Source: a virus (Duplodnaviria; Heunggongvirae; Uroviricota; Caudoviricetes). Taken from it: DNA of 5,107 nucleotides. The notes beneath the pieces are model-generated. The model saw nothing but the letters and a program-made list of their open reading frames with translations, was not told where the DNA came from and ran no database searches. The stretch's first letter is position 1. The number at the start of each line of letters is the position of its first letter. Shown piece by piece: positions 1,821 to 5,107 of this stretch. Location of the stretch: IMG/VR virus record IMGVR_UViG_3300000301_000108. One strand, given 5' to 3'. Made by a program: the position numbers and the translations under genes.

Positions 1821-1886
1821 ATTGCTCTAATAAAAAACATGATGAGTGTACATCACGTTTTAAAAATAATGAATTATTAGAGCAAT
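1821..1886. promoter_or_regulatory. Nested inverted repeat / stem-loop inside the 97-bp intergenic gap (1807-1903)
   Basis: Outer perfect 13-bp inverted repeat ATTGCTCTAATAA (1821-1833) / TTATTAGAGCAAT (1874-1886). Inner imperfect 11-bp repeat AAAACATGATG (1834-1844) / CATCACGTTTT (1851-1861) with a 6-nt loop. On the minus-strand transcript the inner hairpin is followed by a U-rich tract (UUUUUUAUU). Confidence 0.5.
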
Positions 1887-1903: not shown

Positions 1904-2590
1904 TCAAAAAAATGAGCTGATAAGGGGAAGCCAATCCTCTGACACTTCGCGAGGTCGCGGTTTGCCGTGGAAAAAGATTATTCGGCAGTCTTTTGGTAAT
2001 GCCCCATTCCCCCTGGAGTAACGCGCGCTCGCATATTTCGAACCAGGTTCCACAACATCGGCCTTGTAACTTACAAACCATCCCGGATACAGATCCTGAA
2101 ATGCTGGTGTATCATCACCCATAACCTTCCGCAAAAACCCCTGATCACCCCAGCATTCAGTAGTAACACAACGAGCAATCCAACCTTCCGGATCTTGCCA
2201 GAATGCACTCCAGATATGCGCTTTTACACTATTTGGTATCCACAGGGCACCGCTGCCACGATATTGTGGATGGTAAAAATCCCTAAGCATGGTGAAGCTG
2301 GTTGGTGGATTCTCTAGGATTGGGCGTATATCACCGGCAATAACCGTGTCCAAATCCAGATAGAACAGATCATCGGTTATATCCGGTCGGAACAACTCGA
2401 TTTTCGCCCACCAGCCACGGCACTTTTGCCACTGGTTGATCAATGGGACAACTTTGACGCCAGGTACATGTAAACGCTTCAGGTCTGTCAGGCAAATAAT
2501 TTCATAGCCTTTTGGCAGTTGATTAACCAGCCACTGCACATCGGAAGCGTTATAGTCACCACCAGAGCGAAGAACTAAAGCAATCTTCAT
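1904..2590 (-). CDS. GT-A fold glycosyltransferase, GT8-like (retaining-type signature), about 229 aa
   Basis: ORF from ATG 2588-2590 to stop TGA 1904-1906. Motifs: N-terminal MKIALVLRSGGDYNA (compare GT8 starts such as LgtC MDIVFAADDNYA), DxD-type ...WWAKIELFRPDITDDLFYLDLDTVI (compare LgtC YARLKLGEYIADCDKVLYLDIDVLV), and C-terminal IFFHGKPRP (compare the GT8 H-x-G-x-x-KPW motif). The start could lie further upstream inside N-run 2594-2787. Confidence 0.7.
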   Translation of the reverse strand: MKIALVLRSGGDYNASDVQWLVNQLPKGYEIICLTDLKRLHVPGVKVVPLINQWQKCRGWWAKIELFRPDITDDLFYLDLDTVIAGDIRPILENPPTSFTMLRDFYHPQYRGSGALWIPNSVKAHIWSAFWQDPEGWIARCVTTECWGDQGFLRKVMGDDTPAFQDLYPGWFVSYKADVVEPGSKYASARYSRGNGALPKDCRIIFFHGKPRPREVSEDWLPLISSFF

Positions 2591-2666
2591 GCTNNNNNNN
2601 NNNNNNNNNNNNNNNNNNNNNNNNNNNNNNNNNNNNNNNNNNNNNNNNNNNNNNNNNNNNNNNNNN

Positions 2667-3356
2667 NNNNNNNNNNNNNNNNNNNNNNNNNNNNNNNNNN
2701 NNNNNNNNNNNNNNNNNNNNNNNNNNNNNNNNNNNNNNNNNNNNNNNNNNNNNNNNNNNNNNNNNNNNNNNNNNNNNNNNNNNNNNNAAACGATCTGCGC
2801 CAGAAATTTCGCCACCAATATCATCCATCGAATCACTGATACGCTCGCGCGCCCAGACAACGTTGAAAAGCGGCACCTCCTTACCGAATTGATATTCATT
2901 ATCCGGATAGTCGGCATGGGCTATAACGATAGTTTCTTGCCCGGTGTTCAACTCAATGATATAGGGCAGTCGTCTTACCAACTCCACCAGCGCCCTGGCT
3001 AATATTTCCTGATCAGCGTCCAGCATGAAGAACCATTGACCGCCATTCATTAGCCAGTTATTCACGTTGCCATCTGGACTTAACGCATCAATCATCAGCC
3101 GCTCATGGTTCCCCATCACTGCCCTGAACCAGGGCATCTGCAATAGTTCCAGACATTCGACATTTTCAGTACCGCGATCGATAAGGTCGCCGACCGATAT
3201 CAGTAAATCCTGCGCCGGGTCAAAATCCACACGATGGAGTTCGGACATCAGTCTGGTGTAGCAACCATGCAGATCACCAACAACCCAGACATTCCTGTAT
3301 TTGGTACCGTCGATACGGTGATAAATTGTGGGTGCCATCATGTATTCTTCAGCCAT
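2667..3356 (-). CDS. Ser/Thr protein phosphatase, phage lambda PPase (ORF221/NinI)-like metallophosphoesterase
   Basis: Translation aligns along its visible length to lambda phosphatase: [78 protein letters not shown]. It contains the PPP-family GDxHG / GDxxDRG / GNHE motifs. The C-terminal ~40 codons are masked, so the 3' end (~2667) is estimated from lambda PPase length. Start may be ATG 3356 or the downstream ATGs at 3341/3338. Confidence 0.9.
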
Positions 3357-3964
3357 TCTTTAAGAGTCATCTGCGGAATACCTCCCATTTTCCCGCATGA
3401 AACAACGTCAATCTGTTCACGCGCAGACTGGAATAACAAAGGCAGGTGACTTAGATTTTTTGGCGTGCCGCCGGAGTGAACGCGTGGTTCTTGTGTAGCG
3501 TCAACGCCCACCAGGGCGACATGTTTGAATCCGATATGGAAAGCCAGGTTCAGAGCACCATATGCACTATTGCCGCTGGCAATTTCATTCTCATCTTCGC
3601 AAAGGCCGAAATGTGCGGACCAGCGCCACGCCCACCACTCGGGAGAATTCGTATTTTTTGGCTCCGTGCCGCGCTCAGCCACACGACGGAAGCACAGAAC
3701 GCCATCTCTGACTTCACGTTCTTTAACATCGGGTAGTGCCATGCAATAACAAACACCACGGCGACGGCGGCCACGACCAACGCGCCGCATATTGTCTGGC
3801 GATGGATCAAGGGTGAAAAAATAAGAAGCGCGGTTAAGCCAGTCGATGGCCCCATTGACCGCTATAATCGGCACTCCGCGCGGCGCAACAAAGTTTGCGG
3901 CGCTTGGGCCACTGCCGACGATAATAACGCGATCACTGCCTCTAAATTTATTCTTGGGAAACAT
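3338..3964 (-). CDS. Sialyltransferase-like / DUF115 (MptE/Maf-like) fold protein, paralog A (208 aa)
   Basis: ATG 3962-3964, stop TGA 3338-3340. N-terminal motif [10 protein letters not shown]...[11 protein letters not shown] resembles the h-h-h-G-N/S-GPSL ... N motif of Cst-II-type sialyltransferases and DUF115/Maf proteins. Internal [26 protein letters not shown] matches the second conserved block of that fold. The stop overlaps the phosphatase start (TGATG). Confidence 0.75.
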
Positions 3965-4482
3965 TGAATTGCACTGCTCCTACTTGCATTCAAAATATGT
4001 AAATCTGCGTGTTTTTTGCGGGTATCCAGGAACTGCTGTTGCCATTTTGAAATAGACACCTGCGTTGGATTCCGTAGGGCTTGAGGGTGCGCGCCATGCC
4101 AATGAAGGCCGTTTTGCAGAGAACAGTCATAGCCGACTAATACCACTACTTCAGCCCCTGATTCAGCAGCCAGACTGATAGCCTGCGCGCCGCTATTTAC
4201 CCCTTCCGCCGGTCCACAATATCGCCTGTACTCCAACGAAAATGATTTCGCCGCCGCCAGGTTGGCTGTCACTTTGCGGAATCTCCCTCCCGGTATGGTG
4301 GATCCGTATTGCTTCCACCATGACAAATCACCGGCGTATAAGGCATAAATGTCATCGAACATCTGCCAGGAATTGTTAACCGCGATGATTGAACAGCCAG
4401 TTTTTTCTATAGCAGCACAGTCCTCACGAGTGAGTGACGGACCGCTACCGACACAAAAAACAGTCCTAGTCGCCCTGGGTGG
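3862..4482 (-). CDS. Sialyltransferase-like / DUF115 (MptE/Maf-like) fold protein, paralog B; 5' end hidden in N-run 4483-4598
   Basis: The frame is open from stop 3862-3864 upward past the annotated ATG at 4362 into the N-run. The upstream extension reads ...TRTVFCVGSGPSLTREDCAAIEKTGCSIIAVNNSWQMFDD, the same GSGPS...IIAVN signature as paralog A, so the true start is upstream of 4362 (probably just inside the N-run). Second block SGAQAISLAAESGAEVVVLVGYD is present. Confidence 0.7.
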   Translation of the reverse strand, partial: PPRATRTVFCVGSGPSLTREDCAAIEKTGCSIIAVNNSWQMFDDIYALYAGDLSWWKQYGSTIPGGRFRKVTANLAAAKSFSLEYRRYCGPAEGVNSGAQAISLAAESGAEVVVLVGYDCSLQNGLHWHGAHPQALRNPTQVSISKWQQQFLDTRKKHADLHILNASRSSAIQCFPRINLEAVIALLSSAVAQAPQTLLRRAECRL

Positions 4483-4598
4483 NNNNNNNNNNNNNNNNNN
4501 NNNNNNNNNNNNNNNNNNNNNNNNNNNNNNNNNNNNNNNNNNNNNNNNNNNNNNNNNNNNNNNNNNNNNNNNNNNNNNNNNNNNNNNNNNNNNNNNNN

Positions 4599-4697
4599 AT
4601 TCATTTCAGCGATTACCGGGTCCACTACAGCATCTGCTTCCTGTTCATTACGCGGCATGATCGATGCCAGCGATTCATAATTAGCCTTGAATGACAC
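4599..4697 (-). CDS. Small hypothetical ORF (MSFKANYESLASIMPRNEQEADAVVDPVIAEMN...), 3' end hidden in N-run
   Basis: GTG at 4695-4697 preceded by GGGAGA with 6-nt spacing (a strong Shine-Dalgarno). The ORF track extends this frame to a GTG at 4739, which lacks an SD. Its frame differs from paralog B, so it must terminate inside the masked run. Confidence 0.35.
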
Positions 4698-4739: not shown

Positions 4740-4808
4740 ATATGCACTAATTAATTTATTATTTTAAGCAGCATACAACCACTTGTCGCCGTTCAATACA
4801 TGCTCAAT
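4740..4808 (-). promoter_or_regulatory. AT-rich intergenic region, candidate internal promoter for downstream minus-strand genes
   Basis: About 70-bp AT-rich stretch between the VRR-NUC-like gene and the next ORF. The minus strand carries TTGAAC and TTGTAT -35-like hexamers and TATGCT / ATTAAT -10-like hexamers, but no pair has ideal spacing. Confidence 0.25.
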
Positions 4809-4903
4809 NNNNNNNNNNNNNNNNNNNNNNNNNNNNNNNNNNNNNNNNNNNNNNNNNNNNNNNNNNNNNNNNNNNNNNNNNNNNNNNNNNNNNNNNNNNN
4901 NNN

Positions 4904-5107
4904 AAGGCTTATGTATTCCAGGATGGCGGTTATCGCTTGTTCTGCACCATACGCAAGAACGACGTAGTAACCTTCCTCTCTAAGCCTGCGCATCCAGGCG
5001 ATCTGCTCTTTCGTCGGGGCTTTACCATTTGGTTCTTTAAGCTCAATTCGCATGCGGTGATGCTGCCAACTTACTGATTTAGTGTATGATGGTGTTTTTG
5101 AGGTGCT
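4904..5107 (-). CDS. VRR-NUC domain (PD-(D/E)xK-type) nuclease-like protein, partial: 5' end beyond window, 3' end inside N-run 4809-4903
   Basis: Minus-strand frame is open from the window edge. Visible sequence ...RMRIELKEPNGKAPTKEQIAWMRRLREEGYYVVLAYGAEQAITAILEYISL matches the C-terminal half of VRR-NUC domains (E-x-K catalytic motif, then a helix). Such genes are typical of lambdoid early regions. Confidence 0.6.

Follow-up and report, generated by a model that had tools for sequence, protein, structure and literature searches.

Introduction

The glycosyltransferases of family GT8 for which structures have been reported include Gat1 (PDB 6mw5), glycogenin (1ll2 and 3t7m), LgtC (1g9r) and GlyE (5gvv). 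They are characterized by a GT-A fold, a DxD motif, a GDQ motif, a lysine after strand β3 and a C-terminal histidine followed by a basic residue and a proline. The DxD motif serves Mn2+ and the diphosphate of the UDP-sugar, and the C-terminal motif, H-x-x-G-x-x-K-P-W, supplies a metal-binding His and a diphosphate-binding Lys. A second set of enzymes, comprising the Maf flagellin glycosyltransferases, the Cst-I and Cst-II sialyltransferases (GT42) and the pyrophosphokinase MptE, contains the relatives of two proteins encoded next to the gene described here. Phage glycosyltransferases that act on the virion have been described for Che8-type mycobacteriophages, in which they glycosylate the capsid (Freeman et al. 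2023, according to the accounts given in PMC11256854 and PMC12582341).

Bacteriophage P1 carries a gene, pmgQ, whose product already bears the label "glycosyltransferase" in RefSeq and in PHROG 1962 (P1 PmgQ, YP_006557.1; its P7 counterpart HdmD, AAQ07556.1). Plaques form without the gene, as neither knock-outs nor a CRISPRi knock-down caused a plaque defect (PMC10695390; PMC9024508); knock-outs of pmgO, pmgP and ppp also exist (PMC9024508). Since the pmgQ knock-outs plate normally, no phenotype supports its designation as a "putative morphogenetic function" or a "head morphogenesis" gene. A literature search found no functional study of pmgQ, of hdmB to hdmD or of a cassette combining PmgQ with PmgO or PmgP; pmgQ is a known yet uncharacterised gene. 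We analyzed a copy of it in a stretch of 5,107 nucleotides, hereafter the window, taken from the Caudoviricetes record IMGVR_UViG_3300000301_000108.

Results

Identity and boundaries of the gene

The ORF is read on the minus strand from an ATG at position 2590 to a TGA at 1904-1906. The preliminary description had given its product about 229 aa; the ORF is real, and it encodes 228 residues, the figure of 229 being reached only when the stop codon is counted. The ORF shares ~98% DNA identity and the start codon with P1 pmgQ and P7 hdmD. Across 994 nt the DNA is 97-98% identical to 19 P1-like records, and the gene order of the window from pmgS to pmgM is syntenic with P1 and P7. The protein matches PHROG 1962 with an E-value of 1.8e-125, residues 1-228 being aligned to profile positions 1-225 of 230. 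On the basis of these alignments and of the model described below, the ORF is very probably pmgQ (P7 hdmD) of a P1-like phage-plasmid, with a predicted product of the GT8-like enzyme class. The features of the locus are listed in Table 1.

Table 1. Features of the pmgQ locus, in positions of the window.
Feature	Position	Strand	Remarks and basis
pmgQ / hdmD CDS	1904..2590	minus	228 aa and TGA stop; predicted GT8-like GT-A glycosyltransferase
A7 homopolymer (T7 on coding strand)	1906..1912	.	Shifts the stop codon; usual last 5 residues (ERESE) lost
H-G-K-P-R-P (aa 208-213), condensed GT8 H-x-x-G-x-x-K-P-W	1952..1969	minus	Conservation in 57 relatives
G-D-Q (aa 148-150), aligned to the "GDQ" catalytic-centre motif of GT8 enzymes	2141..2149	minus	D149 57/57, Q150 53/57
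Y-L-D-L-D (aa 77-81), predicted DxD metal/nucleotide-sugar motif (D79, D81)	2348..2362	minus	D79, L80, D81 57/57
G-W-W-A-K (aa 59-63)	2402..2416	minus	W60, K63 57/57
V-L-R-S-G-G (aa 6-11), N-terminal β1-loop of the nucleotide-binding half	2558..2575	minus	V6, G10 invariant
ATGA overlap (ppp stop / pmgQ start; translational coupling)	2587..2590	minus	P1 annotation; L001 and L009 sequences
ppp, lambda-type Ser/Thr phosphatase	2587..3356	minus	Pfam Metallophos E 3e-14; P1 annotation, translation
pmgP / hdmC, Maf/MptE/sialyltransferase-like partner (208 aa)	3338..3964	minus	
pmgO / hdmB, distant pmgP paralog, partly masked (4483-4598)	3862..4600	minus	P1 annotation mapped; PHROG 4603
pmgN / hdmA, small first gene of the operon	4466..4697	minus	P1 and P7 annotation, mapped coordinates

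The preliminary description had also suspected that the length was underestimated and that the true start lay in the masked run at 2594-2787, where unmasked sequence might reveal a much longer N-terminus. Such an extension was rejected. The start codon is settled, since an in-frame TGA lies three codons 5' of the ATG in the unmasked sequences of P1 (L001) and of a near-identical contig (L009), and since the ATG overlaps the ppp stop codon in an ATGA junction, which is kept in 43 of 44 P1-like loci. The masked run therefore conceals the 3' end of ppp and not additional PmgQ. The C-terminal 39 codons of ppp fall inside this run, which is padded (194 N in the window versus 117 nt in the relatives).

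At the other end of the gene, the window has a run of seven A residues versus six in P1 and P7. The one extra A results in a protein of 228 aa versus the usual 233 aa; among the 44 P1-like loci, 42 encode 233 aa and one encodes 228 aa. The residues lost lie past the last conserved column of the family alignment, and relatives end at varying positions.

Fold and conserved motifs

Searches with the single PmgQ sequence in Pfam, in NCBIfam and, using phmmer, in the PDB returned nothing significant; the window protein had no Pfam match at E<=1 and none in NCBIfam. A clear answer as to its class came only from a profile of the family and from a predicted structure. The profile, built from 57 relatives, matched Gat1 (6mw5, E 1.2e-7), glycogenin (~1e-4) and GlyE (1e-4) in the PDB; the DxD, the GDQ and, its histidine apart, the C-terminal motif line up in these alignments. 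The AF2 model of PmgQ (pLDDT 95.2, pTM 0.92) displays a GT-A fold, a single Rossmann-like α/β/α domain. When this model was compared with the PDB using Foldseek, the best 50 matches were all GT8 enzymes (probability 1.00, TM 0.5-0.64, identity 13-16%), among them Gat1, glycogenin, WbbM, LgtC, GlyE, XXYLT1 and LARGE1. PmgQ is a soluble protein of ~230 aa with a GT-A fold in its predicted structure, and profile and model together show that its closest relatives are the retaining, Mn2+/DxD-dependent GT8 enzymes Gat1, glycogenin, LgtC and GlyE. The Pfam family PF01501 is the only Pfam glycosyltransferase family found among the 57 relatives, of which 12 match it weakly (best E 0.019, none significant). 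The designation as a GT8-like glycosyltransferase is thus upheld by the profile, the fold and the catalytic positions, in a protein that stays below the PF01501 threshold.

PmgQ shares with the solved GT8 enzymes the GT-A fold, the DxD, the lysine and the GDQ listed in the Introduction, and it has a candidate for their C-terminal histidine with its basic residue and proline. In the model a β-strand spans residues 2-7 at the N-terminal motif, of which L7, R8, S9 and G11 are at least 90% conserved in the 57 relatives. The motif that contains Lys63, the predicted nucleotide-pocket lysine, is aligned by the profile to the "TKL" lysine region of Gat1. The DxD block is kept, as had been proposed at the outset; YLDLD is aligned to the DxD of Gat1, glycogenin and GlyE, and it stands some 23 residues closer to the N-terminus than the glycogenin motif does (profile position 71 against residue 96 of 1ll2). 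The G148-D149-Q150 triplet is aligned to GDQG in glycogenin, GDTG in Gat1 and GDQS in GlyE, a centre that we take to correspond to the Gln189 region of LgtC.

The C-terminal motif departs further from the GT8 pattern. The H-G-K-P signature named in the preliminary description is present at aa 208-211, and its H208 (56/57), G209 (56/57) and P211 (57/57) are conserved, but K210 is found in only 16 of the 57 relatives. The conserved basic residue is instead R212, which is Arg in 47 and Lys in 8 relatives (Arg/Lys in 55/57). HMMER places the glycine and the P-R-P of this motif on the G..KPW of glycogenin, with the histidine offset by 2 residues. The histidine and the basic residue are 4 positions apart in PmgQ versus 6 in the GT8 consensus, the motif, which is preceded by F, reading H-G-x-P-R-P in place of H-x-x-G-x-x-K-P-W, and just 20 residues follow the histidine.

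The protein had been called unusually compact. This is accurate with respect to classical GT8 enzymes, whose solved relatives have 239-310 residues, but not within its own family, in which the 57 relatives range from 186 to 267 aa. With a family median of 215 aa, P1 PmgQ is on the long side, and compactness is the norm. Proteins of about 190-240 aa are usual in this family, which has no fewer than 4,300 clusters when grouped at 50% identity and is covered by no curated Pfam or NCBIfam domain model.

The operon and its other genes

By homology to P1, pmgQ is the last gene of the C1-controlled operon pmgN-pmgO-pmgP-ppp-pmgQ, and pmgR lies downstream of it. A promoter and terminator scan of the gap between pmgQ and pmgR revealed two C1 operators and nothing else. 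The pmgO and pmgP genes overlap by 103 nt. PmgO matches PHROG 4603, labelled "alpha-2,3-sialyltransferase", with an E-value of 1.9e-59, and is related to the PmgP family (hhalign E 1.3e-4 across 128 columns); both proteins have a Maf/MptE/sialyltransferase-like fold. The preliminary description had regarded the adjacent genes as paralogs of pmgQ. This is wrong as stated: hhalign gives a probability of 0.3% for a relationship of PmgO and PmgP to PmgQ. At 208 aa, PmgP is far shorter than Maf, which has 632 aa; it scores below the Pfam threshold and is putatively either a glycosyltransferase or a kinase. No PADLOC defence model matched the operon proteins.

Genomic context beyond P1

The neighbours of the non-P1 loci were identified from same-strand ORFs and local HMMs. 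The preliminary description had proposed a small enzyme that may rely on its neighbours for substrate recognition, and the general idea of joint action with them gained unexpected support: a gene resembling pmgO or pmgP (PmgO/P-like) is found near the PmgQ-like gene in 25 of 37 non-P1 viral loci and in 28 of 61 bacterial genome loci, in 13 of the latter directly adjacent to it. Moreover, the two are fused in one ORF in at least two lineages (L068; L069/L078/L086), in both domain orders, and one of these fusions carries PF01973 at 72.5 bits; a 421-aa ORF in L068 (5989-7254) is an example of such a natural fusion. In a relative with 52% identity (L052), two MptE-like genes abut the PmgQ-like gene. 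PmgQ-like and PmgO/P-like genes are conserved partners, often located right after the major capsid gene in other phages.

At the non-P1 loci, ORFs upstream of the PmgQ-like gene include 18 major-capsid matches as well as portal and protease matches, and those downstream include head-tail connector, head completion, gp10-like, tail completion and tail tube proteins. Called genes of L003 and L005 are arranged in the order major capsid protein, small ORFs, PmgQ-like gene and connector. Prophages of Onishia taeanensis (L005) and Martelella endophytica (L004) are examples with the cassette beside the capsid gene. Neighbours or fusion partners of PmgQ-like genes comprise FkbM and other methyltransferases, a sulfotransferase and GT2 enzymes. 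The two-enzyme cassette seems often to be extended by methyltransferases and sometimes to be a single fused polypeptide.

As a separate observation, capsid proteins encoded beside the cassette have short C-terminal tails rich in Ser, Thr, Gly and Ala, a trait seen without a control set.

Other contexts lie outside head modules. The pair of Citrobacter phage phiNP is located between Rz and terS, and the Chlobot gene stands alone beside tail-fibre genes. The 33 bacterial loci (of 61) without a partner are in cellular contexts, some with an O-antigen ligase domain, GT2 or FkbM; Wzy_C (4), GT2 (2) and FkbM (3) were found near such chromosomal homologs.

Ppp was also considered as part of the conserved cassette and was rejected. 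Homologs of Ppp gave 0 matches at the non-P1 loci; the phosphatase is found only in P1-like elements and is therefore outside the conserved cassette.

Discussion

PmgQ would be expected to be a retaining enzyme that takes a hexose from a UDP-sugar and attaches it to a glycan or protein acceptor, and it may belong to the same pathway as PmgO and PmgP, its Maf/sialyltransferase-like neighbours. The acceptor would most likely be a virion structural protein, because many siphophages and prophages have the pair placed after the major capsid gene and before the genes of the head-tail connector, where it is often accompanied by SAM methyltransferases. This gene arrangement suggests virion glycosylation as the leading hypothesis for PmgQ, with the genes as a phage-encoded virion glycosylation cassette. 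We put forward a virion protein as the target tentatively, as a possibility drawn from gene order. P1's own operon is located far from the capsid gene, which argues against such a target, and the paper on the P1 virion proteome does not name PmgQ, PmgO or PmgP as virion-associated, nor does "glycos" occur in its text. A broader version is somewhat doubtful: that a widespread, undescribed two-enzyme cassette O-glycosylates proteins of the capsid or of another part of the virion in phages of Gram-negative bacteria, pmgO-pmgP-ppp-pmgQ being the P1 version, and that P1 virions bear an unnoticed glycan. Such a glycan would be built from host UDP- and CMP-sugars.

The Che8 type resembles the PmgQ cassette in that phage glycosyltransferases are encoded in a small cassette, and its glycans are on capsid proteins. 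The PmgQ cassette usually follows the capsid gene directly, and the likeness would be one of outcome. The hosts of the PmgQ cassette, unlike those of the Che8 type, are Gram-negative, and its partner is Maf/MptE-like. Homology to the Che8 type was not found: when 50,697 phage records were searched with PmgQ by tblastn, the 31 that matched all belonged to phages of Proteobacteria and none to an actinophage.

PmgQ, PmgO and PmgP might instead modify a host envelope glycan (LPS core, O-antigen or exopolysaccharide) and so hide the receptor from phages, either in the lytic cycle or, for moron-like copies, in lysogens. The LPS core is the receptor of P1, and the majority of GT8 enzymes in bacteria act in LPS/LOS core glycosylation. 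The structural matches of PmgQ include LgtC and WbbM, the PHROG label is that of a sialyltransferase, and NCBIfam gives a weak hint from PmgP to the Kdo-III transferase WaaZ, at an E-value of 0.11 that is far under threshold. The lambdoid moron positions of the phiNP pair and of the Chlobot gene, the latter also beside lom, point in the same direction. So do the partner-less chromosomal homologs, whose cellular contexts with O-antigen ligase, GT2 and FkbM mean that a surface-polysaccharide acceptor fits as well. However, most phage copies are positioned between capsid and head-tail connector genes, which implies late expression and little time for new LPS to reach the surface. To judge from the annotated operator, C1 keeps the P1 operon switched off in lysogens, so that it would have no role in lysogen superinfection exclusion. 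Furthermore, the best relatives in sequence and structure, Gat1 and glycogenin, are cytosolic protein-glycan enzymes. Taken with this evidence, envelope modification appears rather unlikely.

It is less probable still that PmgQ serves as a takeover or counter-defence effector which, much like a glycosylating toxin, adds sugar to a protein of the host cytoplasm or to a small molecule. Its place beside the capsid gene in other phages would then be incidental. A soluble GT-A enzyme, as predicted by the model, with kinship to protein-directed GT8 members would suit this role, the Ser/Thr phosphatase Ppp in the operon suggests protein-directed action, and the gene is non-essential on laboratory K-12, as accessory genes would be. 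Yet Ppp is confined to P1-like elements, and repeated insertion into head modules, with methyltransferases alongside, is a pattern more typical of enzymes that build glycans on structural proteins. The lack of a PADLOC match also speaks against an effector, within a library that holds no counter-defence genes.

Glycosylation of phage DNA in a base hypermodification pathway is very improbable. Some phage glycosyltransferases do decorate DNA (bioRxiv 10.1101/2023.12.21.572611), and single matches to Mom, a DNA methylase and PAPS-reductase/DUF3440 occur near a few PmgQ homologs. Against this, no hydroxymethylase, TET-like or other base-modifying gene is a conserved neighbour, the partners being Maf/MptE-like proteins and sugar-type methyltransferases, and no DNA glucosyltransferase is found among the best 50 Foldseek matches of the PmgQ fold in the PDB. 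To our knowledge, P1 DNA is not glycosylated, and we know of no DNA glucosyltransferase that is GT8-like.

Finally, it is extremely improbable that the window copy is a decayed, inactive remnant, a view drawn from its homopolymer frameshift with the loss of five residues and from the normal plaques of knock-out and knock-down phages, since every catalytic motif is intact, the ERESE end falls outside the conserved columns at a point where relatives differ, the active-site columns are invariant in a family conserved across phyla, and the AF2 model is confident up to about residue 220.

The finding itself is mostly ordinary: pmgQ is a known P1 gene, already labelled as a glycosyltransferase, of a size typical for its family and with a certain start. 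The wider interest lies in a large family with a GT8-like fold that is outside curated models and genetically tied to a Maf/sialyltransferase-like partner. To date, demonstrations of virion glycosylation come mainly from mycobacteriophages, in which it alters antibody recognition. If virion glycosylation by the PmgQ cassette holds true in Proteobacteria phages, including P1, a workhorse of the laboratory, it would have consequences for phage-therapy immunology, adsorption and stability, and it would provide functions for four P1 "pmg" genes.

Identity and ends of the ORF

The ORF under study is pmgQ of P1 (hdmD in P7), a previously known gene. The 5.1-kb window shares 97-99% identity with the pmgS-pmgM region in P1, P7, SJ46 and RCS47, and its genes all lie on the minus strand in the P1 order pmgS, pmgR, pmgQ, ppp, pmgP, pmgO, pmgN, pmgM. 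The product is already labelled 'glycosyltransferase' in RefSeq, and PHROG 1962, which bears the same label, matches it end to end (E 1.8e-125). Comparison with P1 and with L009, an IMG/VR contig 99.4-100% identical to the window outside the masks, revealed that all five masks exceed the sequence they replace by 76-81 nt. As a result, the window distorts both coordinates and reading frames at the masks; ppp and pmgS, for example, look frame-shifted in the ORF listing.

The masked stretch before pmgQ corresponds in P1 and L009 to the last 39 codons of ppp, and in both the pmgQ frame contains a TGA three codons before the ATG, which excludes the longer N-terminus that the preliminary description had allowed for in the mask. 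The start codon and the ppp stop codon share the sequence ATGA, a junction kept in 43 of the 44 P1-like loci compared. At the other end, the protein terminates in ...LISSFF* because the window has A7 at 1906-1912 instead of the A6 of P1 and P7, which gives ...LISSFFERESE*. A 233-aa product is encoded in 42 of the 44 P1-like loci and one of 228 aa in a single locus; the residues missing from the window copy lie outside the conserved core. Thus, the N-terminus is settled and the C-terminus of this copy is slightly atypical.

Two perfect P1 C1-repressor operator cores, ATTGCTCTAATAA, are located in inverted orientation between pmgQ and pmgR, one of them immediately adjoining the end of the usual 233-aa frame. 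PmgM, encoded upstream of the operon, is labelled a VRR-NUC domain nuclease in RefSeq P1, not a morphogenetic protein.

Coordinates of features in the window and in related loci (L, collected loci; P, related proteins)
Feature	Location	Remark
pmgQ ORF (-)	ATG 2590 to TGA 1904-1906	228 residues
Masked N run	720-815	96 nt vs 15 nt in P1 and L009
Masked N run	1397-1486	90 nt vs 10 nt in P1 and L009
Masked N run	2594-2787	194 nt vs 117 nt in P1 and L009
Masked N run	4483-4598	116 nt vs 40 nt in P1 and L009
Masked N run	4809-4903	95 nt vs 15 nt in P1 and L009
C1 operator core	1821-1833 (+)	corresponds to P1 OpmgRb
C1 operator core	1874-1886 (-)	corresponds to P1 OpmgRa
ppp	2587-3356	
pmgO/pmgP overlap	3862-3964	103 nt
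pmgM	4793-5053	
Three-gene unit	L052:1808-3614	without ppp
Viral fusion ORFs	L068:5989-7254, L069:1962-3239, L078:5200-6474, L086:5659-6963	
Multidomain fusion proteins		P0319, P0292, P0333, P0334, P0241
Capsid genes with Ser/Thr/Gly/Ala-rich tails	L005:5849-7243, L054:4036-5241, L093:3429-4634	and others

PmgQ is related to GT8 enzymes

As a single sequence, PmgQ has no Pfam or NCBIfam match and only one, marginal match in the PDB, to Gat1 (GT8; E 0.077, in the DxD region). Among 5.8 billion proteins searched, 136 relatives were found, nearly all of 190-240 aa and none with a precomputed Pfam domain. A family profile built on 57 diverse members matched Gat1 (E 1.2e-7), many glycogenin entries (~1e-4) and GlyE (1e-4), with the DxD, GDQ and C-terminal motifs in register. 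The AlphaFold2 model computed from the relatives' alignment (pLDDT 95.2, pTM 0.92) had only GT8 enzymes among its best 50 Foldseek PDB matches (probability 1.00, TM 0.5-0.64, identity 13-16%), including Gat1, glycogenin-1 and -2, WbbM, LgtC, GlyE, XXYLT1, LARGE1 and 3tzt. When the 57 members were scanned against Pfam, PF01501 (Glyco_transf_8) was the sole glycosyltransferase family met, in 12 members and always below threshold (best E 0.019). PmgQ is thus very probably a GT-A enzyme with GT8 as nearest kin that falls outside the present curated GT8 model; 'GT8-like' is apt for fold and ancestry, not for strict membership by the curated threshold.

Residues V6, G10, D36, W60, K63, D79, L80, D81, D149 and P211 are invariant in the 57 sequences, and Q150, H208 and G209 nearly so. 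Both motifs pointed out earlier, YLDLD (residues 77-81) and HGKP (residues 208-211), are kept with the exception of K210, which varies; the conserved basic residue is R212. The family motif F-H-G-x-P-R-P is a condensed variant of the GT8 H-x-x-G-x-x-K-P-W.

The protein had also been called unusually compact. This is true against the solved GT8 domains among the best 50 Foldseek matches (239-310 residues), than which PmgQ is ~30-70 residues shorter. In the profile alignment to glycogenin the DxD lies ~23 residues nearer the N-terminus (profile position 71 = residue 96 of 1ll2), and only 20 residues follow His208. It does not hold within its own family, whose 57 aligned members measure 186-267 aa (median 215). 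When 1.84 billion cluster representatives were searched exhaustively with the profile, 4,302 proteins scored E<=1e-10, the best 150 of which are mostly 190-250 aa. P1 PmgQ even exceeds the family median, owing to two small insertions. One family member, P0120 (390 aa), has an N-terminal extension of ~185 aa with a segment, 'GSQRLCALRAL', that by eye resembles ParB/sulfiredoxin.

Conserved partners and gene fusions

PmgO and PmgP, previously taken for adjacent paralogs of PmgQ, are distantly paralogous to one another (E 1.3e-4 over 128 columns) and not to PmgQ, the PmgQ and PmgP families giving a profile-profile probability of 0.3%. Both have weak matches to PF01973 (MptE-like) and to PHROG 4603 'alpha-2,3-sialyltransferase'. 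Their genes overlap in different frames, as in the P1 annotation; because the first β-strand of PmgP already begins at residue 12, there is little room for a later PmgP start codon, and the overlap may have a regulatory meaning or reflect an over-long pmgO annotation.

We sampled PmgQ-like loci from IMG/VR, two prophages and one genome per bacterial species, and screened the ORFs in them by a local HMM, iterated from PmgO and PmgP as seeds. A PmgO/P-like gene was present in the fetched flanks of 25 of the 37 non-P1 viral loci and 28 of the 61 genome loci (directly adjacent in 13). Hosts were Alpha-, Beta- and Gammaproteobacteria, Planctomycetes, Zixibacteria, Saccharibacteria and one Woesearchaeota MAG. 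Partner proteins tested against Pfam gave the same weak MptE-like signal. In four viral contigs a single ORF of 421-434 aa joins a PmgQ-like domain (~1-220) to an MptE-like domain (~200-420); these ORFs form two lineages with only ~37% identity in the N-domain. Among the best 150 family representatives, 18 are multidomain, in both domain orders and some with SAM methyltransferases or GT9- or GT29-like segments; in one of them PF01973 scores 72.5 bits and passes its threshold. Judged from gene neighbourhoods and fusions, PmgO and PmgP are conserved partners of PmgQ. The natural fusions would lend themselves well to predicting the structure of the inter-domain interface.

The ppp gene was ruled out as part of the conserved unit, since a local HMM search of the collected loci detected Ppp in none outside P1-like elements. 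In L052, a 52%-identity relative on a 96.8-kb contig, two MptE-like genes abut the PmgQ-like gene, which suggests that ppp was inserted into an older unit of three genes.

Genomic position of PmgQ-like genes

In the non-P1 viral loci, the 3 kb preceding the PmgQ-like gene encode, on the same strand, 18 major capsid proteins (PF05065 in 12; three further capsid families, 2 each), portal and prohead protease, as well as 7 Pfam-detectable MptE-like proteins, 6 FkbM methyltransferases and 2 GT2. The gene is followed by ORFs for the head-tail connector (7), for head completion (12), for HK97 gp10-like proteins (13), for tail completion (15) and for the tail tube. In about half of the loci, which are not independent lineages, the PmgQ-like gene lies <=3 kb downstream of a capsid gene; the chance for a randomly placed gene in a ~45-kb genome is ~7%. 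By independent gene calls, the Martelella and Onishia prophages have the order terminase, portal, protease, capsid, small ORFs, PmgQ-like gene, (methyltransferase), connector/head completion, tail. Other positions occur: phiNP carries the cassette pair between Rz and terS, Chlobot, a lambdoid phage, has the PmgQ-like gene alone beside tail-fibre genes, and further copies come from jumbo phages and from EP_H11, there in a region that is uncharacterised. The 33 partner-less bacterial loci have mostly ordinary chromosomal contexts, a few with O-antigen ligase domain, GT2 or FkbM genes.

HK97-type major capsid proteins encoded just before the cassette end in a short Ser/Thr/Gly/Ala-rich tail (e.g. 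TIGSSGA, VLTSGA, DGLPASA) after a conserved ...RPEAFVKGDF. This tail, read only in cassette-bearing loci, could be an acceptor site.

Proposed role

In all likelihood PmgQ is a soluble GT-A enzyme that carries a DxD, has GT8 ancestry and retains intact active-site residues. Its gene is translationally coupled to the upstream gene and belongs to a lytic operon under C1 control that also encodes two Maf/sialyltransferase-like proteins, partners to which the family is tied by conserved adjacency and gene fusion. The enzyme would be a retaining transferase that uses a UDP-sugar as donor and catalyses one reaction in a short pathway of glycan assembly. Virion structural proteins would be the likeliest acceptors given the post-capsid position, the methyltransferase co-occurrence and the cytosolic protein-directed kin (Gat1, glycogenin; Maf); we propose this target tentatively. 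A precedent is mentioned in passages of two papers citing Freeman et al. 2023 (PMC11256854, PMC12582341), according to which phage-encoded glycosyltransferases of Che8-type mycobacteriophages glycosylate the capsid; tblastn of phage records detected no kinship of these enzymes to PmgQ.

P1 pmgQ, pmgO, pmgP and ppp are non-essential by CRISPRi (PMC10695390), and a table in that paper cites a knock-out study as likewise scoring them non-essential. Single-gene knock-outs of P1 pmg/upf genes plaqued normally in 24 of 29 cases; among the Pmg proteins discussed in that study only PmgC and PmgG are virion-associated, and glycosylation is unmentioned there (PMC9024508). The discrepancy for pmgN, essential by CRISPRi and non-essential by knock-out (PMC10695390), could be due to polarity in the operon. 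Our literature search found no paper on what pmgQ or the cassette does.

The main rival, modification of LPS or another envelope glycan, is in our view rather unlikely; it draws on the LPS-core role of many bacterial GT8 enzymes, the moron-like positions of PmgQ-like genes in lambdoid phages and the location of some chromosomal homologs in polysaccharide contexts. Roles as a host-protein effector or in DNA glycosylation, or an inactive remnant, are less likely.

The pmgQ observation is thus real, and its special features are largely explained by a known gene of family-normal length with a settled start. The larger result goes beyond the original claim: a widespread PmgQ-like and Maf-like cassette adjoins capsid genes, which makes virion glycosylation a concrete, cheaply testable hypothesis for P1 and many Gram-negative phages.
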